The position numbers were made by a program, and so were the translations under genes. From Emiliania huxleyi CCMP1516 (lineage: Eukaryota), in the NCBI RefSeq assembly GCF_000372725.1, contig NW_005202427.1, positions 801,581 to 865,580 of the forward strand: a stretch of DNA of 64,000 nucleotides, written 5' to 3'. Positions within the stretch are counted from its first letter, which is position 1. Each line of letters starts with the position of its first letter. This document shows positions 5,982 through 47,256 of the stretch, in pieces. The notes below the pieces were generated by a model. That model searched no databases. It was not told where the DNA came from and saw only the letters and a program-made list of their open reading frames with translations.

Positions 5982-8240
5982 TTAACGCGAGGACCACCTG
6001 GCCGATGCCAGCCAGAGGAGTGGGAGGGGCCCGTAGCTCTCCTCCCTGGTAAAGCCGTACGGCGTGCCATCACACGCGAGCCATGTCGAGGAGAGGCATC
6101 CCCTTCTCGAGCCGCGCGCGAACTGGACCGCCGCGCGGAGCACCGTCGCGTAGCGGCCGACGTACGAGCCGTCGTACATCACGGTGAACGGCCTCTCGCG
6201 CTTGTACCCGCTCGGCCAGTAGTCCTCAAACACGCCGCGGTAGCCGGTGCCGCTGTACCCGTCCATCGTGCGCCGCGGGTCGAGGTGCAGCTCGAGCCCG
6301 CCTGCAGGACGTGTCTCGGACATGTCATGGACGTGTCCTCGACATGTCGGGCAACAGTGCTCCTCGAGCCCGCCGACAGAGCCGATGAGCTGCGCAGCGG
6401 GAGGCACCACGCGCGTCCGCAGCCGCGACGGGCCCGCCGACCGCTCCCCTCCCGTCGAACCCCCGCCGCCCTCGGCGGCGTCGGAGGCGGCGGCGGCGGA
6501 AGGCGCGGCGGCCGACCCGCCGTCCACCGCCGCCGGCTCTGCCGCGGCGATGGGCGGCGGCCTCACTTGCTCGGGCGCCTTCCAAGCCTCGACCTCGCGC
6601 AAGCCGACGTACGCGCGCGGGTTGGCGGGCACGAAGAGCGCGCCCGTGCGGCCCTCGGAGTCCTCGAGGTACTTGAGGAGCAGCGGCGTCGTCTTTGACG
6701 CTCGCACCTAGTGGATTCGTTAATGAACTGCCTCAACACTTAACTAAACTCGAGGAGCAGCGGCGGCGTCTTTGAGGCTCGCACCTGCAGCAGGTGCGCC
6801 TTGAAGCGGCGCCGCATCCCCCCCGGCGCGAGCCCCGTCGCCTGTCAACCCATTCATTCGCAGTCACTGGATGAAGTCCTTCACGGACCCCCTCCCCCCC
6901 GGCGCGATCCCCATCGCCGACACAAACCCGCCCACCGCCACGCCGTGCGGCAGCAGAGGCAGACCGTCCTCGCCGAGCTCGACCTGTCCACACACGCCCG
7001 GCCGTGAAGAGGCCGCTGTTCGCAGCAGAGGGAGAGCCCCTGACCTATAGGGCGCGGCCGCACCTCCTCCTCCTCCTCCTCCCCCCGCCCGCCGGCCCCC
7101 TCCGCCGGCTCTGTCCGCGGTGGCCGCAGCGTGTGTGCGGCCGCGGCCGCGGCCGCGGCGGCCGCCGCCTCGGCCTCGTCGGCAGCCTTGAGCTCGGAGG
7201 CGGTGGGGAGGGTGGGCGGCGGCTCGCGTAGGGGCGAGACCTCGAGCCGCAGCAGCTCCGCCGGCCTCTTGGGTAATCTCGGGTACTCTCGGGTAACCTC
7301 GCCTGCCACGGCTCGCACTCTCGGGTACTCTCGGGTGATCTCGGGTAATCTCGGGTAACCTCGCCTGCCACGGCTCGCACTCTCGGCGGCGCGGCCCACG
7401 TCCGCTCGTTCGGCAAGTCGCGCGGCGGCGGCTGGGCAGCTCCGCCTTGGGCGGCTTCTTGCCCGCGCCGGCGCCGCCGCCGCCCTTGCCGCCGCCGCCC
7501 TTGCCTCCGCCCTTGCCGTCTCCCGTAGCACGGCGCGGTGCGACGCGGCAGGGCAGGTTGGCGCGCGAGGGCGGAAGCATCGCGCCTTGCGCGTCCCTGC
7601 ACCTGAGAACCAACCCCACCCCCTCGCCGCGTGATCACTCGAGATTACCCGAGATTACCCGAGATTACCCGAGATTACTCCTCGCCGCGTGGGTCAGACT
7701 GCTGGGCAGCGCGGCGCGGCGCTTGCCAGCTCCGCCTCCGAACTTCGGCATGTCGAGGAGTAATCTCGGGTGATCTCGGGGAATCTCGGGTGATCTCCGC
7801 CTCCGAACTTCGGCATGTCGAGGCAAGCAGAGCACTGGCCGCAGTCGGCGGCGCTGGCGCAGCTTGGGCAGAACCAGCTGCCCTCGGGCACCGCGGCCAG
7901 CGGCGGCGCGAGGCACTTGAGGTGGTACGCGCCTGTCCACAACAGCTAGCCGCGTGAAGACACCGCGTGGACGCGCCGTCCTCCACTCGGAGGCTGTGCG
8001 GCGGTCGGCGCCTGCGCAGCCCTCGCTGTCGCAGAGAAGCATCTCGTTGCCTACTTGCCCGTCCCGCGGACGAGTCACACGACCCAGAGCTCGTCGCCGC
8101 GGCCGCACAGACGCGTCTCGCTGCCGCTCTTCCAGCCGCCCGCGCCGCACTCTCCGCACACCGCGTATTGCCCCCACCTCTGGGGGGAGGCGGGGGCCCC
8201 CGGAGGCACCGTGCGCCGCGCAGCAGTGCGGAAACGGGGC
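5982..8240 (-). CDS. Multi-exon chromatin/DNA-binding protein: PHD finger + CXXC-type zinc finger + AP2-like domain
   Basis: CGECG...MLLCDSEGC|AGAYHLKCLAPPLAAVPEGSWFCPSC (PHD); CGQCSACLDMPKFGG (CXXC); GLELHL...TGYRGV...YVGRYATVLRAAVQFAR (AP2-like). Start not resolved. Confidence 0.75.
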
Positions 8241-8253
8241 CCCGGCTCTACTA

Positions 8254-21863: not shown

Positions 21864-23961
21864 ATGAATGGCGGCAGAAGGGTCATCTTCATCGTCTTAG
21901 CCACCTCTGCCTCCGCCCTGGATCGCCCAGCTCTGCGCGCAAGCACCGCACTCATGGCCAAGCCCCGCAGCTCCGCTCCGATCGCCACCTCCGCCACACT
22001 CGGCGCTGACGGCGGCCGCGACCGCACCACGCTCGCCGCGGTGGGCGCAGCGCTGGCCTCGCTGCTGCAGGGTTACCACACGGGCGTCATCGGCGGTGCT
22101 CTGCTCTACCTCGCGCCCGAGTTCGGCCTCGCAACCGATCCGAAGCTGACCGGTGCCATCGTGACTGCAACCACCGTCGGCTCTGTCGTCGGCACCGCGG
22201 CGGCGGCGCGGCTCTCTGACGGTATCGGCCGGCGCAGCACGCTCGCGATCGCGTCGTGGGCGTCGCTCGCCGGCTCGGCCCTCCTCTGCGTCTCGCGCAC
22301 CGCCGGCGGCCTCGTCGCCGCGCGCGGCCTCGTCGGCGTCGCCGTCGGCATGGCGGGCGCCGTCGTGCCAGTCTACATCGCCGAGACGGCGCAGGCGTCG
22401 CGGCGCGGCGCGCTGGCGGCGATCCCGCAGACGTTCGTCTCGCTCGGCATCTTCTCGGCGTACCTCGTCTCGCTCCTCATCGCCGCCGTCTTCCCCGCCG
22501 CCGGCTGGCGAGGGTTTGCCCTCGCCACCACTTCCACCTCCCTCCCTGCTCCGAGGCCGCCCCTCGGCCACCCCAACGCAGGAGGCCGATGATGGCGGCC
22601 TCTCTCGTTCCGGCGGCGGTGCACGCGGCGATGGTGCTATGGGTGCTGCCCGAGTCGCCCCGCTGGCTGCTGCAGCGCCGCAGGCCTGCCGACGCTCTCC
22701 GCGCCCTCTCGCGCCTGCGCGGTGCGGACACGGCGGCGGCGCTGGCGGCGGCCGAGGAGGAGCTGAGGGCGATGGGGCCGGTGGGGGCGGCGGAGAAGGC
22801 GAAGGGGGGGGAGGGGGGCGGCTTCGGGGCGCTGCTCGAGCCGCGGCTGCTGCGGCTGCTCTGTGTGGTTGTTGCGTTGCAGGCGTTGCAGCAGCTGTAT
22901 GGGAAGTGTCTAGGAAGTGTCCGGGAAGTGTCCCTGGGTTGCGCTGCAGGCGTTGCAGCAGCTGTCTGGCAGCAGCGCCGGCCGGCTCTCGGGGGCAGAG
23001 GGAGAGGTGACGCGGCTTTACGGGTCTGCGGCGGTGTGTGCGTAGGGATCAACGCGGTGGTGTACTACACCCCGACGGTGCGCCCCCAAAAGGGGGTGGC
23101 GGGGAGGGGCCCCAAAAAAAGGGCCGAGGGGAGCCGCCCCCCCCAACTAAGGTCAAGGTTGTGTTACACCCCCCTTCCCCCTCTTCCCCCTCTTCCCCTC
23201 CCCCCCCCCCCCCCCCCTCCTCCTCGCAGGTGCTCAAGGAGGCAGGCGTGCCACGACTCTTCGCCTCGGTCGGGCTCGATGAGAACGCGGCCTCGCTCGC
23301 CGCCACCGCGCTCGCGTACGCGCCGCGCCTCCCCGCCATGCTCGCCGCCATCTCGCTGATGGGAGACTTCCTAGACGCCTTCGCAGACACTTCCTAGATA
23401 CTTCCGTTAGGCTTGCCACCATCTCGCTGATGGACCGGCTCGGACGCCGCTCGCTCCTCCTCCGCTTCATCCCGCTCATGGCCCTCTCCCACCTCGCCCT
23501 CGCCGCCTCGCTGCTGCACATGGCCTCCGCCTCGTCCGCCCTGCCCGCGGCGGCGGCGGTGGTCGCGCTCTGCGGCTACGGCGTCGCCTTCTCCCTCTCG
23601 CTCGGCGCGGGACCCGCCTTGCCCCGCCCTCCGCCGCAGCCCGGGAGGAGGCGTCCTGCCCCCCCCACACTCTCCGCCGCTGCGAGCAGGCCCCATCCCA
23701 AACATCCTCACGTCGGAGCTCTTCCCGATGCGCGCGCGCGCCGCCGCCATGTCCGTCTCGCTCGCCGCCCAGTTCGTGTGCAACACCGCCGTCGGCGCCG
23801 GCTTCCCCGCACTGCGCGCCTCGCTCGGCAGCGGCGGCGTCTTTTTCGCGTTCGCCGCCGTGTGTGCGGCCGGCTGGCTCGTCACGGCCGTCGCGGTGCC
23901 GGAGACCAAAGGGAGGGCGCTCGAGGACGACGGAGGAGAGGGCAAGACCAAGGCCTCCTGA
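21864..23961 (+). CDS. MFS sugar porter family transporter, 7 exons, possible signal+transit N-terminus
   Basis: GYHTGVIGGA, SDGIGRR, PVYIAE...RRG, PESPRWL, QQLSGINAVVYY, DRLGRR, GPIP...SELFP, VPETKG. Confidence 0.93.
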
Positions 23962-29000: not shown

Positions 29001-29451
29001 CACAACGCAACGAGACAACGTGCGAGAGACTCGATCGGAAACTCTGCCCGCGTGCCGTGAGCGTGACCCGTGTGTGGGTGTGCCGCGACTGCACTCGCTC
29101 AGACCTCAGTCTCTGCACTCGGAGCACGGAGGCTCAGCCTCGCGTGTCGCGGGGGGACTCGCCAACATAAATTAAATTAAATATTAGCATACCCATATGC
29201 TCCCCAAGTGGGACCTGTTCCCTTTTACCCATCTCACAGTATAGTCTATAGAGGTGTCCGTTTTTATTTATTTGGGTCTGTGGTTGCTGCTTCTCGCGTG
29301 CGTCCTTGGCACTTGTGCCCGCCTCCTTCACCTACGAGCTCGTATATGCCACGTCGCCGCCCGTGTTTGGGTTTCTATGTTTGCGATTTGGGTTTTGGCT
29401 TATCTATGATTCTGTGTTTATTTATTTTATTTGTTTATGCTCCACCCAAGT

Positions 29452-29762
<311 letters not shown>

Positions 29763-30060
29763 CACCCAAGTGCGCGCGCGGAAGGTGCAACGGCTGCCGC
29801 AAGGAAAACGTATATACGCACAAGAGCTATCCGGCCTGACACTCCCTGCACGCTGCAGCGGTCGACTTCACTACACGAACGGCGCGTCACGATGTGTCCC
29901 TCGAAGTCCCACACAGTCATCCCCCCGCCACTGCATCCTGCTCGCACCACGCCTCTGCTCTCGGCGGCGGCGACCTCAACCCCCACCCCCAAATGCGCCC
30001 CCTCCCCTCGCACCGAAACCGCCTCGCCCTGCCGATGGGGCGACGCCCTACGCCGACGCC

Positions 30061-31493: not shown

Positions 31494-32809
31494 ATGGAGG
31501 ACGCTGGCGAGGACGCTGGCATTCGCTGGCACGGCGCGGTGGCGTCGCACTTCCCGCCCGCCTTCCGCGCCTTTCTCGAAGCGAACGGCGTGCACGCCGA
31601 CAACTACTCCGTGGAGGACGTTCCGCGCTACATCCGCGTCAACCCGCGCTCGGCGCTCACGCAGGAGGAGGTGGAGCGGCAGCTGCCGCGGAGCGAGCCG
31701 GTCGGCTGGCTGCCCGGCTACTACAGGCTACCGGCCGACGTCAAGATTGCCGCCTGCGACGCCTACCGGCGCGGCGACCTCTACGGGATCGACCTCGCCT
31801 CGGGCGCGGCGGTGGCGGCTCTGGGCGTGCTGCCGGGCGAGGCAGTGCTCGACATGTGCTGCGCGCCGGGCGCAAAGCTCTGTGCGCCAGCGCGTGCGCC
31901 GAACAGGTCACCTCCCAGCTCGGAGGTGACCATCGATTCCGGCGAGCTTTAGGCGCGCTGGCAGACGCGCTGCAGCTGAGCGGCTCGGTGACGGGAGTCG
32001 ACGTCAGCGAGGAGCGGCTGGCTAGAAGCTGGAATACGTCTTCATGTCTCCCAACCAGCACTCGAGAGGACACGGATTCAGCCGCATTCCGCTGTATTCC
32101 GCTGTGTTCCGCTGTATTCACTGTATTCTTCTCCGTTGTGTTCACGCGGTGCTCTGAAGGCGCAACACAGTTACCGTACTCACGCCCTCATGTCAGCGTA
32201 TTCACAGCGTAGGAGCGGCTTGCTGCGGCCAGGACGCTGTGCCGCAAGTACGGCATCACGAACGCGCGCCTCTACCTCGCAGACGCGACCGCCTTTGCGG
32301 AGCCGCCGCCACTCACCCTCCCCTCCTCCGACGAAGACACTCTCACGAGGGACGCCGCTCCGGCCGCCGCCTCCGCCTCCGCCTCCTCCGCCGTTGCTCC
32401 GGCCGCCGCCTCCGCCTCCGCCTCCTCCGCCGTTGCTCCGGCCGCCTCCTCCGCCTCCGCCTCCTCCGCCGTTGCTCCGGCCGCCGCCTCCGCCTCCGCC
32501 TCCTCCGCCGTTGCTCCGGCCGCCGCCTCCGCCTCCGCCTCCTCCGCCGTTGCTCCGGCCGCCGCCTCCGCCTCCGCCACCTCGACCGCCGCTCCGGCCG
32601 CCGCCTCCGCCTCCGCCTCCTCCGCCGTTGCTCCAGCCGTCTCCGCCGCCTCCGCCACCTCGACCGCCGCTCCGGCCGCCGCCTCCGCCTCCGCCGCCGC
32701 TCCAGCCGCCGCCGCTCCAGCCGCCGCCGTGGATCCGCCGGAGAGCGGCAACGCTGCCGACGGCGCCGCTGTCACCGCTGCGCCCGCCGCATCGCCGCCT
32801 CGAGTAGCT

Positions 32810-32844: not shown

Positions 32845-34173
32845 AGCAGCTAGAGGTGGAGGTGGTGGAGGTGGAGGTGGAGGTGGAGGAGGAGGTGGTG
32901 GTGGTGGTGGTGGTGGAGGAGGTGGTGGGCGGCGGCGCAAGCGCCGGCAGCGAGCTGAAGGCAGCCTCGCCCCTTCGGCGTGCCGCCGCGTCGCCGCTCC
33001 GCCCCGACCCTCTCTCCTCCCCAGCCGCAGGAGCGCCAGCCTTCCTGGGCAAGCGGCTCGCGCGGGCGGCGGCCCTGGCGGAGCGCGCCGCCGCGAGAGG
33101 AGGCTGCTTGGGCGACGCGGCGGCGTGCGGCCAGCTGGGCGGGCGGCAAGGAAGGCTGTACGACAAGGTCTTTGGTGCCCACACCGCTCACCCACGCGCG
33201 CTGGGCCTTGCACGTTGAATGCCGTGCGGCTCCTGTCGTCTAGACGTGGAGTCGCGAGAGGGTCGCCCACCCCTTGCCCCACCACCTCGTGTGTGTGGAG
33301 AAGTGCACCTTACCTTACCTTAGGTCTTGGTGGACGCCGAGTGCACGCACGACGGCTCCATCAAGCACCTCGCAAAGTTCGCACAGTGGGGCTGGGACAC
33401 TTTCGAGCGGCGAGCGCGCCGCCGCCGCCTCCGAATACCGGGGCCTCTCCCGCGCCGCCGCGAGGAGCCGCCTCCCCTCGCTGTGCGCAGGCGCTTCCTC
33501 GACCCGGAACGGCTGGCGAGCTTGCCGCTGCTGCAGGGCAGGCGAACTTCGGCCTCGGCGAATCTCGGCGAATCTCGGCGAATCTCGGCGAATCTCGGCG
33601 AATCTCAGGCGGCAGGCCGAGCGCCTCCCACCACTCGAGCATCGCGGGGCCCGCGGCCTCTGCCTGGCCGCCCGCCACCTCCGACCCTGCCGCCCGCAGG
33701 CTGCTCCGGGCCGGCTTTCGCCTGCTTCGCCCTGGCGGCGCGCCCTCTCCCCCCGGACGACCCTTCCCTCCCCGCCCCGCCTCTCTTTGCCCTGCCTCTC
33801 TTTGCCTTTGCCCCGCCTCTCTTTGCCTGGCGTCTCTCTTGCCCCGCCTCTCTTTGCCCCGCCTCTCTTTGCCTTTGCCCCGCCTCTCTTTGCCTGGCGT
33901 CTCTCTTGCCCCGCCTCTCCCTCGTCGCGACGCCCTCGCGCTCCGCCGGTGGCAGGTGCTCTCGTCTACTGCACCTGCAGCTTTGCGCGCGCGCAGAACG
34001 AGGACGTTGTCTCGGCCTTCCTCGGCGACGAGCCGGCGGCGAGGCTGGTCGAGGTGGAGTGCCTCGCCGACGCCCCCGCCACGCCGGGGAGCCTGCCCCT
34101 CACGCTGCGCTTCGATCCTCGCCGCTCGCGCACCTCGGCCCTTTTCGTCGCCAAGCTGGAGAGGGTCAGCTGA
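31494..34173 (+). CDS. RsmB/NOP2/NSUN-family RNA m5C methyltransferase, multi-exon
   Basis: RYIRVN, VLDMCCAPGAK, VTGVDVSEERL, LADAT, YDKVLVDAECTHDG, LLRPGG.LVYCTCS...QNEDVV, ALFVAKL. Confidence 0.92.
32012..32212. mobile_element. Introner-like intron (family A) in the NSUN gene, GA-AG
   Basis: Homologous to intron 46054-46208; flanked by direct repeat AGGAGCGGCT(G/T)GCT. Confidence 0.75.
32357..32720 (+). repeat. 39-bp coding minisatellite (APAAASASASSAV)n
   Basis: gctccggccgccgcctccgcctccgcctcctccgccgtt tandem units in the NSUN reading frame. Confidence 0.9.
33168..33323 (+). mobile_element. Intron formed by a LINE 3'-end insertion
   Basis: Interior matches the UTR+(CCTTA)n tail of 4010-4146 and 29624-29762; duplication AGGTCTT(T)GGTG; splicing restores YDK|VLVDAEC. 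Confidence 0.85.
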
Positions 34174-34642: not shown

Positions 34643-36169
34643 TTACTCTTCACTGGCTCTTAATGCGCTCGAGGCGATCCTGGCGATCGGCCTCAGCCCC
34701 CGCGCCGTGTCACCCGCGGGGAAGGCGTCGATCCGCTCGTCCTCCAGGAACGCAAAAGCGCGCGCAAACTCGCTCGGCGAGGCGCGGATGGGCGCCTCGA
34801 AGTGAGCGGGCACAATCTGCTCGAACTGCCAGCGGCGCGCCACCGCGTCGACCCACCGGCGCACCGCGGCCGGGTCCTGCGCGTAGAGAAGCGTCCGCAC
34901 GACGGGCGGGACGAGCAGTCGCCCGGCGAGCGCGCGAAAGTTGTCGTGCCATCCCTCCGTCCACGTGACGACGCCGAGGCCGGCGGCGGGGTCGGCCTCC
35001 TCATGCTCGGGGAAGAAGAAGGAGACGAGCAGGGCCGTCTTCTCCCAGCCCGCCTAGTTCAAACCGATCGGGTGTTTGAGTGTGTGTGTGTGCGGCGGCC
35101 TGTGCTCTCTCCGTCTCCCAGCCCGCCTGCCGCGCCTCGGGCGTGTCCGCGGGCTGCGGGTCGGCGGTCGAGCGCTTCGAGACGAGCAGCAGCCGCGCCG
35201 GGTCGCTGAGCGGCGGCGCCTCGATCGGGACCCTGGCGAGGGCGTCGGTGACAATGAGGGAGCGGCTCGCGCGGTGGAAGAACGCCGTCTCGTAAAAGGT
35301 GGTGGGTGTGCCGCCGATGGAGAAGGTGCCCGCGGCGAGCGTCTGGTATGGAAGCTCCATCGCCCACGGGACGGCGGGCGCGCCCGCGTCCTCGTCGGAG
35401 AGCGAGAGGACGCCGCTCGGCCGCCTTCCCCACACAAACTCGTCCGAGACGGAGCGGCGCGGGAAGGAGAACTGGCCGGGCGACAGCCACAGCTGCGCGT
35501 CACTCCAGCGGAGGAGCGCGTCCTTGGCGAAGACCTTGTGCTCCAGCGCGTAGGTCGGGACGACGATGTGCCTCACGGCGGAGGAGGGAGAGGGACCAGG
35601 GCTGGGGGCACCGCACTCCTCCGCGCACGACTCAACGAGCTCGAAGAACTCCCGCGACGGCGCGAGCGGCGCGTGGACCCACAGAGAGCCATCCTGTAGC
35701 CGGACCACCACGCAGCGCAGAGGCGTCTCGAGCGGCCCGAGCTCGAGGTTCTGCTCGAGCGCCTAACAGGCGAAGACAGCAAGTGGCGGCCGCCATTCGG
35801 CCACCCCTTGCCGACCGATGTCTGCTGCTCGAGCGCCCAGATGCGGTCGCCGAGCTGCCGCTTGATGGTGCGCCGAGACGACTCGCCATAGAGCGGAGCG
35901 AACAGCGTCGGGAACCGAAGAAAGTACTTTTGCCTCTCCTCGTCGCCGTCTGCGTGTGCAGCGCTTGGCACGATCCCACTAGCAAGTGCTGTTGCCGTGT
36001 GGAGCACGCCTCGCCGGCTCACGTCGTGGGAGCAGGTGGTGGCGGCGGCGGCGGCAGAAGCGGCGAGGGTTGTAGAGCAGAGCTTGGTGTGTGAGGCGGA
36101 CGCATCGGCGCCACTCATGGCAAAAAGCACGACCACGGCTCGGCTTTTGGTTCTACGCAGGTCGCTCAT
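34643..36169 (-). CDS. DUF4336-domain protein; introns 35836-35763 and 35126-35054
   Basis: IWALEQ, RCVVVRLQDGSLWVHAPLAP, VRHIVVPT.ALEHKVF, ETAFFHRASRSLIVTD, IVPAHFEAPI; N-terminal SRRGVL...AAHA. Confidence 0.88.
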
Positions 36170-36254
36170 GGCGGAGCTCACGCCTGGGTGTAGGGTGGAC
36201 GGCTTCTTGTGGCTCTCGTCGAGAGCGTTTTGCGTCCCGGCGGCTGTGAGAATA

Positions 36255-36629
36255 CAGTTCCGGACGGGCATTAAGAACGCACAGGTTCTTCGCCCAGCCT
36301 CAGGTTCTTAGCTAAGTCGGCGGTCCGTCGGGGGCCGAGCCTCAGGTTCTTAACCGGGTGGATGGTTTTTAAAACCGTTTCGGCTTCGATTAAAAATCAA
36401 TAATGGGTCTTAAAACAGTTTGGAAGTTTGGAACAGTAAGTTCGCGCATGGCGTGACAAGAGAGTCATTCGCTGCCGTGAGCTGCCCCTGCGGCTGCGGC
36501 CGCGGGGGCAGGGGCGCCGGCTGCAGGCGTTGGCCCAGCCTCAGGTTCTTAGGGAGTTCTTAGGGATCCGGCCGAAATATGAGCCTCAGGTTCTTAACGT
36601 TAGAGGTTCTTAATGCCCGTCCGGAACTG
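36255..36629. mobile_element. Tc1/mariner-type MITE (TA TSD, 24-bp TIR)
   Basis: TA|CAGTTCCGGACGGGCATTAAGAAC ... GTTCTTAATGCCCGTCCGGAACTG|TA; internal GCCTCAGGTTCTT repeats. Confidence 0.92.
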
Positions 36630-37152
36630 TATGTGATAGGAACGAGTGTATCGCTTCGACGGATCGACCGTACTTGTTATCAAGGACCGATATGACGCAC
36701 ACAGTGACACAACAGACGACACATATTCTCCCATTCGCAATCGGATTTTGTGCGACCGCAGGTGCCAAAATTCTTTTTCGGAGCGGTTACCGGTTTCCTC
36801 CAAGTACCAAGAAAACCCAACCGTGGAAATTTATTTCTATTATGTTTTTTTCGCCGTTTTGAACGCACTGGGCCAGCGGGGAGAAAAGAATTTTACGACA
36901 AAGTGTTGTGCGAAAAAGAAAGAGGCGCCCGTTTGCTTAACGTTGCAAGCCGGGTTGAAGCTGGCTTCGCTGAGAAGAATTCACGCGATCGTAGCGGATT
37001 AATTACTCTGATGAGGAACTACCACTGGGAGCCCTGTGGTGTCTTGCTCTGCTAACAAGAAACCAGGGTAGTGACACGCGGCACTCTGTTTCGTCCTTGA
37101 CTTCCGGGCGCGTGCTTTGGATCGGACTCGTGTGGCGTGCGCAAGTGTAACA

Positions 37153-37550
37153 ATGCAGACGACGCGAGAGCGGCCTCGCGCATGGCTTCTCGTGCTCGTG
37201 ATCGCCCTGGTCGCCTTGGGCTGCTTCACGGTTGCCGGCCCCTCGGCTCAGACCAGCCCTTCCAGAAGCAGTCTTCTCATCCTCGGAAATGACGCCAAGG
37301 AGATGGAGGCGTCGGGAGAGGAGCAAGGACCAACTGCGAGGAGCGTGATCGGCTCGTGGCTCGGTAGCGCGCTGCGCGCTGCGGAGGGCCACGAGCCGTC
37401 ACCGCAGGACTTTTCGAAGACGACGAGGCCCGAGGACATGGGCTGCTACGTGGGACACAGGTGGGCGGAGCCCTGCCCGTTGGGCTCCAGGCCGGACTAC
37501 AAAAGCTGGGTGGCAAAGGTGCAGAAAGTCAAGCAGCAGCAGGCGCAGGT

Positions 37551-37591
<41 letters not shown>

Positions 37592-37767
37592 CGCAGGCGC
37601 AGGCGCAGCAACAGCAGCAACAGCAGCAGCAGCAGCAAGGGGTGACGGTGGCACAAAATAGCAGCAGCCCTTCTACAAAACCACAACGAGTAAGCATAAT
37701 GCGGCCGCAGTGGGCACTACCCGAGGATGGCCGAGGGGTGGGGGTGGGAGGTTGGGGCAGGAGCTGA
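37153..37767 (+). CDS. Hypothetical protein with N-terminal signal/TM and poly-Q tract
   Basis: AWLLVLVIALVALGCF, CAG-run poly-Q; 3' end may be spliced (GTAAG at 37690). Confidence 0.55.
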
Positions 37768-38192
37768 GCCAAGAACCGGGGTGTGATTAGGGTCTTTGTT
37801 TCCACCTTTCGGAAACCTGTGCGTGTGTCGGGTGCTGGGAGCGCTTGTGTCACGGTTGAGTGTTTGTCTTTTCACTTTCGTTTATGATTATGATATGTCT
37901 CGTCACATGGACTGACGTGTCGTTGGCTTGACGAGTGTGACTGAGTGAGTGAGGCTGAGGGCGCGACGGACAGACAGTACACAGCAGACAGTACAGACGG
38001 CTTTCTACACCGAGTACGTACTCCATTGCGGCTTTACACCGACCGACGAATACCACCCACGGCCCGCCACTAGACGCCACAGAGGGGCCCGGCAATGCGA
38101 AAGCGGCTAAACATGAATGAGTGTGCGGCGACGTGCCCACCGCGCTACAGCATGGGCAGTCGCGGCAGCGATCGATCTCTCATCGCTCGATG

Positions 38193-38832
38193 TCAACGTG
38201 CAGCTCTGGGGCGCCCGTGTATTCGCGCGCAATGTCTGACACCGAGTTCAGCTTGCCCTTCTTGGGCATGCAGCAGGGGCAAAACGCCGCGCAGTATAAG
38301 TACTTGAAGATGTGCGAGGGCGCCTCAACTATCCAGGCAGCAGTGAGGCCGTAGACCGCCTGGTAGCCTGCGTCGGCCGCGCGCGGCCTGGTTGCAGCCC
38401 AGTAGACGGTGCCGCCAGCGAAGAGGAGGGTGGCCAGCTGCGGTCGGGGCCGTGGTGCGGGTGGTTGGAAGTGGCACGGGCGGCGGGTGGCCGTGGCCGG
38501 GTGTGCACCTCATACAGGCACTTCATCCCAGAGAAGAAGCCTTGAAAGCACTTGAAGCAGAACGTGGCAGGCGTCACGACGAGGAGGGTCAAGGCGAGGC
38601 TGGCGGCCTGGCTCTTCCAGTCGTCAATGCCGACGTACTCGGCAGTCACCATGCCTGTCGCGACGGCCAGCGAAGTCACGAAGCCGAAGAGCGCGACCTG
38701 GTCGCGTACCTTGCCTTTCTGGAAGACCATGCCCAAGAGAGAGTGGTTAAGCGCGACATACTCGCAGATGTTGACCTTGTCGTCCTTGTTGCCGCCGCCG
38801 AAGAGCCCCGTTGTGTCCGCGTCTGTCTCCAT
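38193..38832 (-). CDS. Hypothetical multi-pass membrane protein (one GT-AG intron ~38507-38438)
   Basis: METDADTTG...QVALFGFVTSLAVATGMV...ASLALTLLVV...LATLLFAGGTVYW...YQAVYGLTAAWIV; C-terminal frame uncertain. Confidence 0.55.
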
Positions 38833-39792
38833 GGCTGCGGCTGCGGCTGCGGCTGCGGCTGCGGCTGCGGCTGCGGCTGCGGCTGAGGCTGCTCCTGAGG
38901 CTGCTCTCGGAGGCCCGACTCGGGGTTGCGCTAGCGGGCCAGGACCGAGCTCAAAAAGCGCGCAGGAGGCGCGTTTTTCTTTCTTCTTTCCTCGATTATC
39001 TCGAGGTTCTGAGGTGGATATCCTTTGGCCGCGTTGTGTAGCGAGGATTGGTGTGACGCGATCCACGCAGGCGTGTTTTCTGGCGGCCGACCGTCAGTGC
39101 ACGGAGTTGCCCCTTCTCCGACTGCCCCGGCTGGCTAGTTCCTTCCCGAGGTCGCGCGGGGCTGACCCCTGCGTCCCCCGAGACCTAGCGCGGGTGGGTT
39201 GGAGGGGGCTCGCCCCGCTCCTCCCCATCGGGCCGCGTGAGCGGCCACGCCTCGCAGATTCGTTTCTCGCGCCTGGGTCAGGCGCGCGGGGCATCCCCCG
39301 GGTCGCTCGACCAGCGATCCGAAGAGTGGCCGCTATGCGAAGGAAAGAGCGGAGCCCTCGGGGTACGCCTCGCCCCTCCGAGGGGGGAAGGGAATTGCGG
39401 GGTCCCCACGGGCGCCTCTCTTCGGCCCTCCCGAGGGGGGGAGGGGAGCAAGGGGGTGGGGGGGTCGGGGCGGTGGGGAGGGGTCTCGGTTTCGTGTGGC
39501 TAATACTTGCCTTTCGGGGAGGGGCCTCCGGCCGTGCGAGGCTAGCTCAGCTCGACATCTTCCCCTCCTCCCCTCGAGGCAGCGAGTAGGCAGCGAGAGG
39601 AGCACTCGAGCGCCTATGTGTCGATGCGCGAATGGCTGGGAAAGAGCGATAAGAAAGTAGAGGGAGGGAGGGCGGGGCGGGCGGTTGGGCGGACGGGCGG
39701 GGCGGGGCGGGGAGGGCGGGCGGGGTGGGAGAGAGGTCGTATATGGCAGCAGCAGCAGCAGCGGCGGCCGCAGCAACAGCAGCAGTGCAGCA

Positions 39793-40709
39793 ACTGGTTG
39801 GGTAGTAGTCTAAGTTCTGAGCCTCGAGGCTGGACGGGTCTAAGTGTGGCTAGCCACGCTGGAGTGCTTGCGCGGTCTAAGATCAGCGGGAGCCTCTTAC
39901 ATCGGCTAAGTCGGCCGTGGCACGGCCTGGGGCCAGGAGGCTCCCACCGTGATCAACGATACGGCGCAGCCCCCAAATTTTCTTCGCCTGCGGAGGGCAA
40001 TGGATCCTCTTCATGCTTAGCAATCGCCGCCTCAGCATCCTCCTCTTCCGATTTTCGTTGCTGCTCCTTCATTCTTGAGCGACGTCTAGCCAAACAGTTC
40101 TCACATGACACGAAGCTCCTCAAGCTTAATCAAACGCGTGACGGTGAAGCCTGTGTGTGCTGGTCCTCTTTGAACGATCCGCGCGTGAGGTAGCATAGGG
40201 CCTTGTTGGCAGCAGCCAGCTAGTTGCGCTGCTTCGTTGCGATGAGCTGATTGGGATCGCAGAAGTGCATGCCAAGCACCGCCACGATCTTGAAGCAGAA
40301 CACATCGCAACCGCATCGTTCGCACTGCCATCGGCATGCCGCGCCCGCCGCTTCGCCGCAGCCGCCTTAAGGCACGCATAGCGGCAGCACATGGTGGGGG
40401 GGGGTACTTGAGCAGGCGCTGCGCGCCGCAAGTAGCGCACTGGCCCTGGGAGAAGGCGATATATGGCGTCGTGCGCGGCATACGCGGCATACGTTGGTGG
40501 GACGCGTCCAGGTGTTTTCGGGTAAACCTGGAGGCTTTTCAGGTATACCCGGGTTTTGCCCGGAGTTGGCCTTATGTCGTCTAAGTTCATGGCCCCCGAC
40601 CATACAGCGTCTAAGTCCGAGCCCGGCTCCGTGTGGGGGCTAAGTTGAGCGCTCGCTCGCTGCAGAGGCTAAGTGTAGAGCGACCCTCTAGCCCTACTAC
40701 CCAACCATT
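39793..40709. mobile_element. Non-autonomous TIR element, 16-bp TIR, 8-bp TSD, in a (CAG)n tract
   Basis: ACTGGTTGGGTAGTAG ... CTACTACCCAACCATT flanked by GTGCAGCA; periodic CTAAG subterminal motifs. Confidence 0.8.
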
Positions 40710-42117
40710 GTGCAGCAGCAGCAGCAGCGGCAGCCTCGCTCCTGCGGTGTCTACCTCTTCCAGTCTATCTAGGCGGCCGCGAGGTTAATATACCGAATAA
40801 TGGTGTCAAAACACCGGGGGTTGGTTGGCGCGCAGGCACCTGAGGGGCCTTCGCCGAGTGCGCACACCACTCAGCTTGGCGTCGACTCCTCGACAACACA
40901 ATACACTCCTCACCGACTCACGCCCTCCACTACTGTTCACGCCCCCTCTCTCGCTCGCTCTCGACAACAGGACGCCACACCCTCTCTCTCCTCCATCACG
41001 CTCTCTCTCCCCTCTCTCTTCTCTCGGTCATGTCATCTCGTTGGTGGTGATTCATCTTGGCTTGCTTTCCCGCTCTCTTCCGACCTCTGTTCCTCTTCGC
41101 CGCTGGAGGGGCACTGCTGCTCGCCTCGTCGCCTTCCGCCATCACGGTCGGCGCCTCGTCGTCGAACGCCTCCCCTCGCACGCGCCGCCCAAGGACCGTC
41201 TCGCCTCCTGGGGCACTGCTGCTCGCCTCGCCGCCTGCCGCCATCGCGGCTGGCGCCTCGTCGTCGAGCGTCTCCCCTTGTGCCGCCGGGCGGATCGAGT
41301 TGGACCCCTCCACCTCGTCGACGGCGTCGCAAATTCTCATCTCGTCCTCGTCGTCGTTGACTGGGCCGCATAGCCGCCTGCCGCCAGCGGTTGAGAGATC
41401 CGCCTCCCCCTCGAGCTGCCTCTCCATTTCCACGTCGTCGCTGGTTGTGGCTCCGCTTCCTCCGCTCGCTGTGCCTCCTTTGTGGCGCTCCTCCGGTTGA
41501 ACCTCCGCCTCTGCCAGCGCCCTCCATTCTCTGGTCTGTCACTTGCCCCTCCTTCCTCCTCGCCCCCTTCCGCCCTCTCGCCGCTCCCGCTCCTCGCTGG
41601 CCTCCGCCTCCTCCTCTCCGCGCAGTCTCCTTTCTATCGTCTGGCCTGCCATTCCGAGCGCATTCTTCCTCGCTGCCTCCGCCTCTGCGGCGCGTGACCG
41701 TGAAGTACGTCTGTTGACTGTTCCGCGGTCTGATGTTGCAGATCGCTAGCATCCAAGATGCCGTATACATTGCGATGATAATCCCGACGATGAACGATTT
41801 TTCATTGGCTCCTACCCTCTCTAACAGTGTCAGCCCACTCACAGCATGCACGCTCCGCGCGCGCACACACCACGTTGGCAGAGGAGAGGCACACGAGGCG
41901 TCAGGCGTGCTAAGCCCGCCTCCAGCACACTCGTAGAACCGTAACGCACACTCGCACACACGTCAAGACACTCGCGACTCGCCCCTTACACGGGCACACA
42001 GCGGTGCTGCGATCGCGACGTAGCCCACCCCACATCCACACTCCACGCACCCATGGCGCTCTTCCATGCGCATGTCTCGACTAGCAGGCGTAGGTGGCGG
42101 GTTGGAGCCCCCCCAAC

Positions 42118-42711
42118 TCACACCTGCGCCCGCGCGGAACTTATCGCGTCGGCCTCGTCCGCAGCGGAGGAACAATACTCGTTTGCACTCACGAACGCGC
42201 TGCTGCCTCGAGCGGTGGACGACGAGGCGGCGGTGGACGACGAGCCGGCGCGAGCTGCTGCTGCTGCTGCTGCTGCTGAGGAGGAGGAGGAGGAGGCTCC
42301 CGCCGTGCCCGCGACGTCTGCCTTTTCGACGCGGCGCAAGCCGCCGTCGCTATCTGACGCACGCGCCGCCGGCGCCGGCGCCAGCGCTGCTCCCCCCTCC
42401 ACTCGCTTCCCCCCTCGACAGGTCGCGAACGCGATGTAGACCCACAGCAGCAGCATCGTGAGAGGTGCAAGAGCAAAGATGCCGGCGCAGGCCACAGGGG
42501 GCAGCGCGGTGGGCCCACCTGGCCATATTTGGGCTTTCGACTCGATGAGGATCGGCGGGTAGCCTGAGCCGGCGCCGTCGCCTGAGCCGTCCTCAGAGGA
42601 TCCGGCTTGGAAGGGCAGCCTCACCGACGGCAGCCAGTCGCCAAAATTCTCAAATGGGTTGAGGCGACGTGGCCTCGAATAAGAGGTGCCCGCGGGATGC
42701 GGCGGCGGCAT
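42118..42711 (-). CDS. Hypothetical single-pass membrane protein
   Basis: ORF MPPPHPAG... with TM ACAGIFALAPLTMLLLWVYIAFA. Confidence 0.55.
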   Translation of the reverse strand: MPPPHPAGTSYSRPRRLNPFENFGDWLPSVRLPFQAGSSEDGSGDGAGSGYPPILIESKAQIWPGGPTALPPVACAGIFALAPLTMLLLWVYIAFATCRGGKRVEGGAALAPAPAARASDSDGGLRRVEKADVAGTAGASSSSSSAAAAAAAARAGSSSTAASSSTARGSSAFVSANEYCSSAADEADAISSARAQV

Positions 42712-42810
42712 TACAGCAGCCGCGGGGCGAAGCGGCTGGTGGCGCCGTCGCGCGCGCAGTCGCGCCAGTGAGCAAGGACGTCCCGATCGTCGAAAAATAA
42801 CGTGGCGGCT

Positions 42811-44352
42811 CTCAGCGGAGCTGGGAATAGGACCGCCGCAAGCGGCGTGGCGTGGAGCGGTTGAGCATCCCTCCGGGGGCCCCTCTGCGCCGGGGAGGCG
42901 TTGTTGGAGGCTAGGACGCAAGCGTCCGTCGCCCTTTTCAAACTCGGGGCCCACTCCGCTACGCTCCGACCCGAATTTGGAGGGCCTGAAAGTTTCAGGT
43001 GTTGCTGCGCAAAAGGGGTCGGACACAGGGCGCAGCTCATGCTAAGAGCTAGAAGGGGAGATGGAGAGAACAACCACCCTGTCCCGTTATTGCGTACACC
43101 AACACCACAAAGCTCTCTCTCTCCTGCTCCTCACACTCAGGGGGCGGTCACGACTACCGAGTCCCTCGACTAGCTGCCACGTTCAAAACCAGGACGGCGA
43201 CAGTGATGGTGCTATCACGGGCATGGTCAGGGGAAAGTGGAGCGGGGGGGGTGAGCGTCAGCCAGCCAGGTACGGGATAGTAGAGCAGGCGCTTTGTGGG
43301 TGGCGGTGGGCGGCGGCGCTGGGTGGCCGGCCGAATCGTTAGCTGAGCTCCTCCCTCAAGCTCGATCACGCATGACGCACGTAACCTGACAACGTCGGCG
43401 AGCTTCTGGATCAGGTTAGGTTGCTGGAGCACCTCCAACTCCTCCTCTGAGTCAGACACGCCAAACGTCGACGACTGCGCCCTCCTCCTCCTCCGATTCG
43501 CCGACCACCCTCCTCCTCCATGGGCTCGATCCGATTCCGCAGCGTGTCGTCCTCAGCGGCGGTGCTGCGCGGGAGGCGGCCGCGGGCACGCTGGGCTCGA
43601 TCAGCGGCTTTCCCTCAGTTGCTCCGAAAGCACTGGGTAGCCCAGGCTTCATGCGCGCGGCGGCTGACGGCTGCTGTGGACCACCTGGACAGGCCAGGCC
43701 GAGCCCTGGGGGAGCTGGGGACGAGACTGCGTCACAAGTCGAAGAGCTAGGACTGCTGTCGCGACCCTCCCGTCGTGCCGCAGCCTCCGACGAGCTCTGC
43801 AACCGAGGAGAGTGAGGGTGCGCCTCCCCTCACTGCTGGCCTGGCTGCGCACCCCCACAAAGCACCCCCTCGAGCATCTCTACAAGTACAAGTACAAGGG
43901 GCGGCGGCTCCGGCAAGACTTTAGCCTTGGCCACCCTCCTTGCGGAGCAGGAGGAGATCCGCTCTCGGTCGGCAACGTGGCAGCTAGTCGAGGGACTCGG
44001 TAGTTTGAGTGACCGCCCCCCTGAGTGAGGACAGGAGAGAGAGAGCTTTTGTGGTGTTGGTGTACGCAATGACGGGACAGGGTAGTTAGTCGCTCTCTCT
44101 AGCTCCCCTTCTAGCTCTTAGCATGAGCTGCGCCCTGTGTCCGACCCCTTTTGCGCAGCAACACCTTAAACTTTTAGGCCCTCCAAATTCGGGTCGGAGC
44201 GTAGCGGAGTGGGCCCCGAGTTTGAAAACGGCGACGGACGCTTGCGTCCTAACCTCCAACAACGCCTCCCCGGCGCAGAGGGGCCCCCGGAGGGATGCTC
44301 AACCGCTCCACGCCACGCCGCTTGCGGCGGTCCTTTTCCCAGCTCCGCTGAG
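42811..44352. mobile_element. Foldback/Mutator-like element with ~375-bp inverted arms (42811-43183, 43974-44352)
   Basis: Arms are long, highly similar reverse complements; ~790-bp unique core; no TSD found. Confidence 0.8.
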
Positions 44353-44439
44353 CGAGCAGCGTAGCGCACCCGCGTGATTCTCGTTTTGAGAGCTTGGCGG
44401 CGCTGCGCGGCCAGGGTCCTGGGTCCGAGCTGCTGTGCG

Positions 44440-47256
44440 ATGGCCTCTTCATCCGGTGGCGCTGCCGCGACTGCCGCTGCGGCTGCCGCTAGGCCGGGCG
44501 CCCAGCTGGCCCAAACGCCCGACGGTCTCACACTTGGCGAGGATTTTCCGTACGTGTGCGAGGTTTTGCGTCCCGCCTCCACCGTCACTGCTCCGCCTCC
44601 TCGGCCGCCGTGTCCGCTGCTGCGCCTGCCACGGCCCGGCCACTGCCCGCGGCCGCGGCCGCGGCCGCGCCCGCCACTCGGGCGGCGGCCGTCCTCCGCT
44701 CACCGCCGCCTTTGCCGGACAGGTCTGCCTCGGTCCCAACCCGTACGTGCGGATGCTCAAGATGCCAAACTCGCGCGAGTGTAAGATCTCGGGCCGGCCG
44801 TACACCGCCTTCCGCTGGAAGCCCGGCTCCGAGGCGCGCTACAAGGAGACCATCGTCGCGGCCGAGGTTGCCATTGCGAAGAACGTCTGCCAGGCGCGGA
44901 CGCCGCCGGCCTCCCCTCCTCCCCTCCTATCCATCTACTTTGGGGTTTTTTGTTCGGCCCTCGTTCTTTTTCCTTTTTTTTTCTTTTGCCCCCCCCCTTT
45001 CCCGGTTTTCTCTTGTTTTTTCTTTCCTTTTTTTTTTCTTGTTCCCTTTCGCCTTTTCTTTTTTTATCCGCCCCTTCTTGTCGCTAATTTTCTCCCTTTT
45101 TTTTTCCCCCCTTATTTTTTCTTCCCCCTCCCCCCTCCTTNNNNNNNNNNNNNNNNNNNNNNNNNNNNNNNNNNNNNNNNNNNNNNNNNNNNNNNNNNNN
45201 NNNNNNNNNNNNNNNNNNNNNNNNNNNNNNNNNNNNNNNNTTGTCCAAGACGGCGAATCAAGCTCACCCCCCCCCCCCCCCCCGGGGGCAGGTCTGCCTC
45301 ATGGACATGGAGTACAACCTGCCTGTGGCGGTCCGCGACCAGCTGACCGGCGCAGGCAAGGGCGGCGAGCGGGGCGTGGGAGGCGAGTGGCTAGTCGCTG
45401 CAGCTAGTCGCTGCAGCTAGTCGCTGCAGCTGGTCGCTGCAGCTGGTCGCTGCAGCTGGTCGCTGCAGCTGGTCGCTGCAACAACCTGCTGTAGCTAGCT
45501 GCCCCCCCTCTGCTCCTCCAGCGAGATCGCGGCGAGATCGCGGCGAGATCGCGGCGAGATCGCGGCCCGCCACGGCGGAGGTGACGCGTGCGTGCGTGCG
45601 TCCCCCCGCCACAGGCGTCCAGATGCCCGGCTCCGACGTCAACAAGGAGTTTTACTGGGAGAACCAGCGCCAGTCTCTCGCGGCGGGCACGCTGCAGGGC
45701 TACCAGGAGCTCAACGCGGGCGGGGGAGCCGCGTCGGTGGGTGCCAACTTCGAGAAGCTGGCACCCTGCGCTCTTCGGGCGGCTGGTGCGTCGGTGGCGG
45801 GCGGCGGCGGGTGAGTCCGCCGGCTGACCGCCTCGTAGGCCGCTCTCTCGCGCAACAACTCGCACACGCCCTACTATGACCGCAACCTGCCGAAGCTCTG
45901 CTCCTTTTGGGCGCCCTCCCGGACCAGCGGGTCGCGTCGCGAGGGCCTACGGGCGCCTCCCTCTCGCTGGAGCGCGCGCCGCTTCTTGTCTGTAGGCGCG
46001 CCAGACTTGCAACCGCGTCGCGAACGGCTCGTGCCCGTACCGCCCCTGCTGCGGCGTGTTATCCTAGAAGCGGGATGCGTGTTCTCGTCTCCCAACCAGC
46101 GCTCGAGAGGACACGGACTCCGCCGTATTCCGCCGTATTCCGCTGTACTCACTGTACTCCTATCCGCTGTGTTCATGCGTTGCTCTGAAGACGCTGCATC
46201 ATACCTAGGCGTGTTTCGCTTCCCCGAGCTGGCGTCCACCCAGCCCGAGCTGCTCTCGACGCTGGTGCGGAAGCTGCATGCGGAGGGGGCGCTCGGCTGC
46301 ATGCGCGACACGTCGGACGAGATGGAGGAGATCCGCGAGGCGCGTCGTCACTCCGTCCAGGAGGATCTCTCTCTCTCTCTCGCTATGAATGATGACGAGG
46401 GAGCGGTGGCGACTCTTAGGCTCTGCGCGATTCGCAGCGCGGCTCGAGGAACGAGGCGATCCGCAACCGCTACCACGGCGCCGAGGGCCGGGCTAGCTCG
46501 CCGCAGAGCACGCGGACATTTGCCGCACGCACGTCCCGGCCCCTTTCCTAGGTACCGAGGGCGGCATGTCGCGGACATGTCGCGGACGTGTCGTGGACAT
46601 GCCGTGGACTGTTCCTAGGTACCGAGGGCGACAAGCTGGCGGCAAAGTACCTCGATAAGGCGCAGAGCATGGCGGCGCTCACTCCGCCCGAGGACCAGGG
46701 CGTCGTCGCGCTCTGGGTGGGCGGCCCCCACCGCCGACAGCACCCCCCCCCCCCCCCCTCTCCCACAGCGCGCGTGAGTGGGCATGTGGTTGCTCGTCTA
46801 GGTTGGCGGCCTCACCGCCGACATCACGCAGCAGGACCTGCGCGACGCCTTCTACGCATACGGCGAGATTGCGGCGGTGCGCAGAGACGAACCACACAGG
46901 CGGACACAGGCGGGTCGTGGCGGAGAGACGGGGGACCGGGCCCGTGCGGTCGTTAGGTGCGGATGAAGCCGGAGCGGCGCTGCGCGCTGATCGAGTACAC
47001 GCTGCGCAAGTCGGCAGAGGAGGCGGCGACGGCGCTGCACCGCCGGCTGGCGATCAAGGGGGCGAGGCTGAAGCTCTGGTGGGCAAAGTCGCAGCAGGCG
47101 GCCGACAACGCCGACGCGCGGAAGTACGTGAGCCAGGCCTACGGTGCGCCGGTGCCCCCGCCGGGCGAGGTTGCCGCCTTTGGAGCGGCCGGCGGCGCGT
47201 CGCTGTACCCGTCGATGAACCCGAGTGCGATGGGCGCGCGGCCCGACGCCAGGTGA
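44440..47256 (+). CDS. RBM22: Pre-mRNA splicing factor RBM22/Slt11-like, ~11 exons
   Basis: FPYVCEVCLGPNPYVRM, FRWKPG, KNVCQVCLMDMEYNLPVAVRD, PYYDRNLPKLCSFW, LTPPEDQ..ALWVGGL (RRM), LKLWWAK, YPSMNP..MGA. Confidence 0.9.
46054..46208. mobile_element. Introner-like intron (family A) in RBM22, GC-AG
   Basis: Homologous to 32012-32212; flanked by GGCGTGTT. Confidence 0.75.

Follow-up and report, generated by a model that had tools for sequence, protein, structure and literature searches.

Exon duplications at intron 5' ends in an Emiliania huxleyi genomic segment suggest intron gain by insertion from several sources

The origin of new spliceosomal introns has long been debated, and most intron gains remain without an assigned mechanism. 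Emiliania huxleyi, with its many cultured strains and abundant RNA data, is a good test case. A 2022 study of strain CCMP1516 describes 653 introner elements in five families (PMC9860276), and a 2025 study describes an E. huxleyi family, fam24, with "10bp terminal direct repeats", a co-opted 5' splice site and a carried 3' splice site (PMC12130899). Use of GC donors has also been published for this species, as have short introner families; as listed in these two sources, the families have mean lengths of 37 and 70 nt, and their entries for target-site duplications (TSDs) and terminal inverted repeats are mostly "?" (PMC9860276, PMC12130899). In Daphnia pulex, as described in PMC4202315, new introns carry a direct repeat of exon sequence at their far end, varied fillers and secondary insertions, as do those reported here; however, the Daphnia repeats measure 4-12 bp, whereas our introns have repeats of 10-37 bp and fillers that recur, vary little in total length and use GC or GA donors. 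Tandem duplication of an AGGT-containing exon segment, as outlined in PMC3443670, resembles our units at 22883, 35054 and 7730, where the duplication spans the junction together with AG|GY, but differs in that a foreign filler separates the copies here. Our search of the intron literature did not find long, variable duplications at a near-fixed total length.

The window analysed is a 64,000-nt stretch of the CCMP1516 assembly (contig NW_005202427.1). An earlier note on this sequence proposed that its introns begin with copies of the downstream exon start, and all ten units that it cited were located where it had placed them, with G[T/C/A]...AG ends (Table 1). Exon-duplicating introns are a feature of this DNA. 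In a set of 29 introns, made up of all introns of five fully modelled genes and two single RNA-defined introns, eight carry a downstream-exon copy at their 5' end (score of at least 8), compared with 0.32 expected from mismatched intron/exon pairs; none of 20,000 permutations of such pairs reached this count. The introns of the PHD gene were excluded from this test because they were found through their duplications. Within the RNA-supported subset, the copy is present in 4 of 14 introns versus 0.0 expected. The signature is therefore present, as the note held, but it marks ~28% of introns and not the majority implied by the term "window-wide". A scan for two-copy direct repeats that was blind to splice sites showed a period peak at 60-79, with 10 of 40 repeats at window positions 1-47,500 and 52 of 102 in 29 metagenome loci falling in this range (seven loci dropped, five redundant and two allelic to window sites). 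When repeats of period 60-90 are cut at their left edge, 5 of 11 in the window and 21 of 55 in the loci fit G[TCA]..YAG; the corresponding control rates are 0.03 and 0.05.

Table 1. Introns, candidate units and repeat copies in the window. Duplication lengths written as sums are exon-side + intron-side match unless stated.
Position	Strand	Feature	Description
3765..4147	+	Longer copy of family A	Apparently outside genes; no duplication found
6302..6373	-	72-nt candidate intron	12-bp duplication, GC donor, CAG end, GACATGTC-type 11-mer array filler
6708..6784	-	77-nt intron	37-bp duplication, GT donor, TAG end, AT-rich filler
6842..6917	-	76-nt intron, uncited earlier	25-bp duplication; required for open frame
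7730..7794	-	65-nt candidate unit	29-bp duplication, 10-mer array filler reversed
8051..8124	-	74-nt candidate intron, PHD/CXXC-domain gene	Decayed ~21-bp duplication, TAG end
22883..22949	+	67-nt intron, sugar-transporter gene	Duplication spans junction (12+20 bp; 20 exon-side, 12 intron-side), GGAAGTGTC-type 11-mer array
23340..23410	+	71-nt intron	23-bp duplication (23+0), GC donor preceded by T
29451..29763	+	Family-A copy outside genes	(CA)50, (ACCTT)3 tail, 8-bp flanking duplication
32012..32212	+	201-nt intron, NOP2/Sun-type methyltransferase gene	10-bp target duplication + full family-B element
33168..33323	+	156-nt intron	~12-bp duplication + 5'-truncated family-A repeat
35054..35126	-	73-nt intron, DUF4336 gene	Exact 15-bp duplication (13+2) including AG
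35763..35836	-	74-nt intron	13-bp duplication (12+1), GC donor, TAG end; frame requires removal
46054..46208	+	155-nt intron, RBM22/Slt11 gene	3'-shortened family-B element, eroded target duplication
46478..46618	+	141-nt double-unit intron	74 + 67 nt back-to-back units
46717..46801	+	85-nt intron	Decayed ~27-bp duplication with gap, GT donor, TAG end; skipped in 4/4 RNA runs
46877..46956	+	80-nt intron	6-bp match only; borderline, counted as non-duplicated

The splice signals agree with the earlier description. Donors are relaxed (20 GC, 8 GT and 1 GA among the 29 introns), TAG ends are commoner in duplicated introns than in the others (7/8 versus 7/21, Fisher p=0.014), and introns without a duplication have a GC content of 0.74, compared with 0.62, and end in CAG in 14 of 21 cases. 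The repeats behave like target-site duplications in which the first copy starts with GT, GC or GA and acts as the donor. Each unit has AG at its end, and splicing gives back the uninterrupted mRNA. This scar-free removal is exact in RNA contigs, and the spliced models match homologous proteins. Contigs, as distinct from raw reads, were drawn from four studies, cover 29,800-48,100 and have 15 of 45 joints listed; they skip the introns at 35054, 46054, 46478 and 46717 exactly. Three of these are cited units. Support for a fourth cited unit, 35763, is indirect: contig pieces end at 35750 in three of four runs and at 35763 in the remaining one, and its joint, like those of 32012 and 33168, lies outside the 15 listed. 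The intron at 35054 is skipped in 4/4 runs, with Pfam positions 7-200 and 202-321 on its two sides; that at 46054 is skipped in 4/4 runs, its spliced model being 100% identical to protein P0001 over 396 aa; and the double unit at 46478, both halves of which open with the same duplicated exon start and close with TAG, is skipped whole in 4/4 runs.

Among the other cited units, removal is needed by homology for four (32012, 33168, 22883 and 23340) and by reading frame for 6708-6784, and nine of the ten cited units introduce a frame shift or a stop. Retention of the 32012 intron gives an in-frame stop, that at 33168 breaks a conserved YDKVLVDAECT motif, and the spliced models at 22883 and 23340 are each gap-free in six of seven homologues, local identity being low at the latter. 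The last 283 codons of the gene at 6-8 kb are open only if both 6708-6784 and 6842-6917 are removed. Splicing of 6302-6373 is unproven, as this unit is in frame and stop-free and the gene is open with or without it; 7730-7794, on the gene strand, parses only with a GAG acceptor drawn from the duplication; and the exon downstream of 8051-8124 matches PHD and zf-CXXC domains.

We consider it likely that these introns are insertions into coding exons accompanied by target-site duplication, supplied by at least three putative sources, with the insert and one copy of the target spliced out exactly. An insertion of this kind would duplicate its target, and the first copy would become the donor. Only events that supply an AG and a donor beginning with G, and that total ~65-80 nt, would survive in exons, and the spliceosome's broad donor tolerance would make such survival common. 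On this reading, 8 of the 29 introns keep a birth mark, and a single genome hosts several routes at once. The commonest of these is too varied to be caught by introner searches that depend on near-identical introns and reliable gene annotation. The earlier note took the heterogeneous fillers as a sign of a general insertion-to-intron pathway and not of one introner family. No single filler shared across the cited introns was found, and 12 of 26 short fillers are unique; the claim fails, however, for 32012 and 46054, which belong to one dispersed family (B), for 33168, which copies a second repeat (A), and for the 14 short fillers with relatives on other contigs. The filler types comprise at least families A, B and C and four array types, plus unique fillers.

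Family B, the first putative source, is a ~185-bp element that would carry its acceptor and borrow its donor from a fixed 10-bp duplication, its putative inverted repeats ending in YAG. The two window copies are 80% alike and lie in unrelated genes, and 36 metagenome loci represent 31 distinct sites once five redundant loci are removed. Similarity starts 10 bp after the donor and stops at YAG, such that the element end supplies its own AG and the 10-bp duplication begins at the donor. At the 14 of 31 sites with both ends recognised, flank identity at 10 bp is 0.66, compared with a permutation mean of 0.36 and maximum of 0.52 (0/2000), while other lengths from 5 to 15 bp give chance-level identity; seven of the 14 match at 8 or more of 10 bases, and the 3' ends are TAG in ten and CAG in four. 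The 32012 copy uses the GA donor and has a duplication of 12+7 that is loose on the left, with 9/10 duplication bases matching in allele L021; the 46054 duplication is 7+1, and its element is present in alleles L020 and L031. The putative, imperfect terminal inverted repeats, with end motifs picked from the alignment, pair at 11 of 15 terminal bases. The element folds no more stably than shuffled versions (z=0.53), and its orientation relative to the coding frame is weakly biased (17/25, p=0.054).

Family B resembles introners in its similar introns at unrelated loci, its defined ends and the splicing of the 46054 copy in RNA, and its anatomy also corresponds, with a putative inverted-repeat end at the acceptor, a donor from the first TSD copy, relaxed donors and scar-free removal. 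It is set apart by its 10-bp TSD, its length of ~185 bp and its degenerate inverted repeats, and it accounts for only two of the eight duplicated introns. None of the published E. huxleyi families, compared by their listed descriptions and not by sequence, is near its 155-201 nt (PMC9860276, PMC12130899). No empty allele was seen, as three allelic loci (~99% identity) carry the same introns; distant homologues are uninterrupted at the family-B intron positions. Neither the family-A nor the family-B pattern had a match in viral contigs, the latter had none in prokaryote genomes, and alignment of RBM22 yielded no locus in those two collections. Eight family-B loci compared with Rfam showed no ribozyme or tRNA-like match (three weak hits fell far below threshold), leaving a ribozyme-bearing retroelement or tRNA-SINE unsupported, and a Helitron was dropped given the fixed 10-bp duplication. 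The sequence pattern points to a non-autonomous DNA-transposon-like element. A 10-bp target-site duplication would suit Mutator-like elements.

The second putative source, family A, would be a repeat that is truncated at its 5' end, has an (ACCTT)n tail and lies next to duplications of 8-12 bp. Its three window copies are 90-96% alike and differ in 5' extent, with four more in the metagenome loci; the copies show a fixed 3' end, a short-repeat tail and variable 5' truncation. Duplications judged by eye measure 8 bp at 29451, ~12 bp at 33168 (10+2 with one indel) and ~9 bp in locus L028, and none was found around the 3765 copy. The longest copy holds no convincing long ORF, the full-length element is not in the sample, and no transposase or reverse-transcriptase partner was found among the family-A ORFs. 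By its pattern, family A appears to be a non-LTR-retroelement-like repeat. Non-LTR-derived introners make up ~5% of classified families as given in PMC12130899; family A is like them in its ragged 5' ends, short-repeat 3' tail and apparently variable 8-12-bp duplication, but unlike them in that its tail ends at the acceptor (33168), only one window copy forms an intron, and no reverse-transcriptase gene is linked.

The commonest class consists of short units in which a 10-37-bp duplication and a 38-64-nt filler total 66-81 nt. Total length has an SD of 3.4, compared with ~7.3 for duplication and filler each, and the two parts are inversely related (rho -0.88), a relation partly produced by the 60-90 period cut. 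Removal keeps the frame in 18 of 21 metagenome units (p=1e-6), which are sequence-based, the RNA evidence coming from window genes. Fillers match another contig in 14 of 26 cases, against 0 of 130 shuffled, while 12 have no relative in ~128 kb, including the 6708-6784 filler, for which none was found in the window or the metagenome loci; in so small a sample, this leaves room for a template-free route. Arrays occur in both orientations, the 23340 filler being the 22883 11-mer array reversed, which poorly fits a process that copies only sense intron RNA. The family C core has YAG|G 16-24 nt downstream in 9/9 cases, with a variable 5' extent. Array-filled duplications also occur inside family-B elements, and nested insertions at the family-B 5' end have periods of 42-75 nt and need not be spliced on their own; the ~70-nt scale may therefore be partly mechanistic. 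The published 70-nt E. huxleyi families, as described, may overlap this class (PMC9860276, PMC12130899).

For this third source, we propose a staggered cut 10-37 bp wide that would be filled with 38-64 nt, more than half of the fillers being copied from a few recurrent templates, either 10-11-mer arrays or a shared 3' splice-site module. Retroelement-type nick-primed copying is our tentative first choice for the process, ahead of templated break repair, which we hold as a less favoured possibility. Ordinary staggered double-strand-break repair capturing arbitrary DNA, with the arrays merely abundant DNA, comes nearest to the general pathway of the earlier note but is rather unlikely: the 12 unique fillers, the variable duplication length and the two array orientations are as it predicts, and Daphnia likewise shows recurrent events at young introns or within them (PMC4202315), but it sits poorly with the 14 recurrent fillers, with the 3' acceptor anchoring of family C, and with Daphnia repeats of 4-12 bp as described there, and it gives no account of family B's fixed 10 bp. 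A more speculative extension, which we think improbable as it stands, is a self-feeding process in which staggered nicks of 10-37 bp would receive copies of 3' intron parts (branch region and acceptor, often with 10-11-mer arrays) until duplication plus filler reached ~70 nt, the duplicated target supplying the GT, GC or GA donor and the same junctions being hit repeatedly to give back-to-back units. If true, it would amount to a 3'-splice-site cassette spreading with neither a 5' splice site nor transposon ends. The 2013 genome paper reportedly noted 10-11-bp tandem repeats in E. huxleyi introns, and the short-class mechanism may explain them.

A quite different and doubtful explanation is that the introns are old and that the exon start was overwritten onto their 5' ends by abortive repair from spliced cDNA. 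Total length near that of non-duplicated introns (70-88 for most) and less variable than its parts would be expected, as would the lack of an empty allele among the three allelic loci. Back-to-back units at one junction, however, indicate that sequence was added and not replaced, fillers are common to unrelated genes, and array-filled duplications lie inside family B. Homologues from 6-14-kb contigs, which are presumably genomic, are also uninterrupted across the intron positions, although lineage loss could produce this.

Insertion next to RG in one orientation by an HUH (Replitron-like) copy-and-paste transposase could also yield variable duplications. Replitron-1, as described in PMC10288648, targets RG in a fixed orientation and has fuzzy ends with duplications of variable length, putative Replitrons are listed for two haptophytes, and G precedes the donor in 24 of 26 short units. 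The same G precedes the donor in 19 of 21 non-duplicated introns, however, and no terminal direct repeats were seen in the fillers; we regard this reading as less probable still. As this pre-donor G is so general, it cannot be credited to the duplication, and the earlier rule that the acceptor arises from "TA" and the second copy's G is not borne out in general. Assembly errors or reverse-transcriptase template switching, which direct repeats favour, are largely refuted despite the gapped draft (seven N runs) and RNA evidence from contigs, as the same units recur at ~99% identity in metagenome assemblies made independently, copies differ at 33/538 positions, nine of the ten cited units shift the frame or contain a stop, removal restores homologous proteins, and agreement of the ends with G[TCA]..AG greatly exceeds that of controls.

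The position of the junction within the duplication varies among units. In introns 22883 and 35054 the whole AG|GY lies within the duplication, in 17 of 26 short units one base at most left of the junction is shared, and at 23340 T, not G, precedes the donor. Gene finders are likely to misplace junctions that fall within such duplications.

All ten duplication-bearing units cited in the earlier note as introns whose 5′ end copies the start of the downstream exon were found in the window, a eukaryotic sequence of 65% GC with seven assembly gaps. Analysis covered every intron of five modelled genes (NOP2/Sun-type methyltransferase, RBM22, sugar transporter, PA2G4-like and DUF4336) and two single RNA-defined introns (n = 29), a set that avoids choice by eye. 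All five models have an open reading frame, the RBM22 model is 100% identical to the homologous protein P0001 across 396 aa, and the closest named homologue of one window gene comes from Isochrysis galbana. Duplications exceed chance: 8 of the 29 introns score at least 8 vs 0.32 expected from mismatched pairs, as do 4 of 14 RNA-supported introns, for which mismatched pairs predict none. The reported bias towards TAG ends was likewise recovered (7/8 duplicated vs 7/21 other introns, p = 0.014), and GC content is lower in duplicated than in other introns. The duplication signature is real and statistically strong. GC donors occur in 20 of the 29 introns, in agreement with the share of roughly 60% that PMC4028052 gives for E. 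huxleyi. Together with the I. galbana homologue, this indicates that the sequence comes from E. huxleyi or something closely related. Evidence for removal of individual units is tabulated; transcript evidence consists of contigs from four runs in four studies, RNA being on record for one run and guessed for three, and the exact skips are among the 15 joints listed out of 45.

Introns and repeats in the window, with evidence for splicing
Positions	Feature	Observation
3128-3593 / 26416-26883	Inverted dispersed repeat pair	About 470 bp, 94-95% alike
6302-6373	Candidate intron only	In frame, no stop
6708-6784	Duplicated intron	Open frame requires its removal
22883; 23340	Duplicated introns	Transporter model gap-free across both in 6/7 homologues
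30017-30018	34-39 additional letters in RNA contigs of three runs, absent from the window	Likely assembly deletion or different allele; possibly piece of intron or UTR
32012; 33168	Duplicated introns	In-frame stops inside; both break conserved motifs
32357-32695	39-bp repeat, 8.7 copies	Taken as coding sequence for a linker rich in Ala and Ser in methyltransferase model
33542-33699; 45383-45614	Introns without terminal duplication	10-13-mer arrays inside; array at 33542 appears to lie within short duplication of donor region
35054-35126	Duplicated intron	Exact skip
35763-35836	Duplicated intron	Indirect RNA-contig support for removal
42811-43183 / 43974-44352	Inverted dispersed repeat pair	About 380 bp, 94-95% alike; also in metagenome loci L006, L029
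46054-46208	Duplicated intron	Exact skip
46478-46551; 46552-46618	Back-to-back units at one junction	No exon between; 46478-46618 skipped exactly
46717-46801	Duplicated intron	Exact skip
48455; 51645	980-bp repeat
49937-64000	Recurring protease-like gene segments with spacers rich in Pro and Ser	93-95% alike, between assembly gaps; repetition may be partly an assembly effect

The interesting part of the finding is a short class of introns of about 70 nt. In a splice-site-blind scan, two-copy repeats peak at a period of 60-79, which accounts for 10 of the window's 40 repeats and for 52 of 102 in 64 kb of metagenome loci; these loci were selected as carriers of family B (an introner-like element) and are possibly atypical in short-unit density. 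Repeats of period 60-90 parse as introns at the left edge in 21/55 cases in the loci and 5/11 in the window vs 3-5% for displaced controls; the remaining 40 parse with a cut within the repeat (12), parse with a RAG acceptor only (15) or are unparsed (13), and several of them sit within introns. The 26 edge-parsed units combine a duplication of 10-37 bp with a filler of 38-64 nt to a total of 66-81 nt, and this total has an SD of 3.4 vs about 7.3 for duplication and filler each; the inverse relation of these two parts is partly a product of the 60-90 period cut. Removal leaves the coding frame intact in 18 of 21 locus units. Fillers match another contig in 14/26 cases vs 0/130 shuffles. The recurrent ones include 10-mer arrays with ATCTC at their end and 11-mer arrays of three kinds, and both orientations are seen for two of the array types. 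Family C makes up the rest, a core of variable 5′ extent with YAG|G 16-24 nt downstream in 9/9 cases.

Other fillers belong to longer elements. Those of introns 32012 and 46054 are 80% alike and define family B, for which a 21-nt pattern search returned 36 metagenome loci (31 distinct sites), mostly from two assemblies and hence non-independent samples. The element is ~185 bp long, with defined ends, internal 10-bp repeats and an unremarkable fold. Where both ends were recognised (14 sites), the flanks match at 10 bp (identity 0.66, against a mean of 0.36 and a maximum of 0.52 in permutations) and at none of the other lengths between 5 and 15, with agreement at ≥8/10 positions in 7 sites. Its end motifs pair at 11/15 bases, which argues that its own end provides the acceptor AG. 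Family B appears to share the anatomy of known TIR/TSD introners, no transposase was identified for it, and it is probably an undescribed MITE-like introner family. In L013, L015, L016, L027, L034 and L036 its 5′ end is repeatedly re-duplicated, with a ATCTCCCCAT-type array between copies.

Intron 33168 is filled by a 3′ portion of family A, a repeat with ragged 5′ ends and an (ACCTT)n tail that has two more copies in the window and four in the loci; duplications of ~8-12 bp flank three copies. Such ends, short-repeat tails and duplications are the pattern of non-LTR retroelements; a search of family A for an enzyme gene found none. Two inverted copies lie tail to tail at the L034 contig end.

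The earlier note derived acceptors from TA plus the G of the second copy. This does not hold for 23340 or family B, and elsewhere it is indistinguishable from an insert-borne AG, because G also precedes the donor in 19/21 non-duplicated introns. Among the 26 units, the stretch shared left of the junction is 0 bases long in 2, 1 base in 15, 2 bases in 8 and 3 bases in 1.

Duplicate copies mismatch at 33/538 positions, an underestimate with ends fixed by score, and 8/26 are perfect; wild alleles ~99% identical to the window carry the same introns. The events behind them are therefore mostly older than the present alleles, yet young enough to retain the duplication. Homologues are single ORFs on 6-14-kb contigs, uninterrupted across the intron positions, which suggests that the introns are absent from other haptophytes; intron loss in the homologues' lineages, instead of absence from the start, is possible. 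The homologous protein P0020 has a 37-residue insertion at a different position, with ends resembling a read-through GT..CAG intron, which hints at a genomic origin of the homologues' contigs.

Several known systems are related. For E. huxleyi, PMC9860276 lists 653 introner elements, grouped into five families with a length of 37 or 70 nt. Three families were reported in 2025 (PMC12130899, supplement file 8), and terminal direct repeats of 10 bp are noted for one of them; comparison of both sets with the window families used the listed descriptions. Staggered-break intron gain in Daphnia leaves 4-12-bp repeats (PMC4202315), direct repeats at intron borders are broadly reported (PMC11782384), and Replitron-1 makes variable duplications adjoining RG (PMC10288648). 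In the literature covered, with subscription papers mostly outside its scope, we found no description of family B, or of duplications that are long and variable while the total length stays nearly fixed. The window introns are a variant, itself new, of known intron-gain routes.

We consider it quite likely that these introns arose by insertions from several sources, each of which would duplicate its target site, with the spliceosome acting as a filter that would accept GT, GC or GA donors and prefer short introns. The ~70-nt length may be set by selection or by mechanism, since the periods of nested insertions at the family-B 5′ end range from 42 to 75 nt. Overwriting of old introns, with no new intron gained, is made less likely by the back-to-back units in the window and L026, which show added sequence. 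Such pairs may be spliced recursively, or existing 3′ splice sites may be hot spots for these units. Back-to-back duplication-bounded units also occur in L025, L007, L036 and L018.
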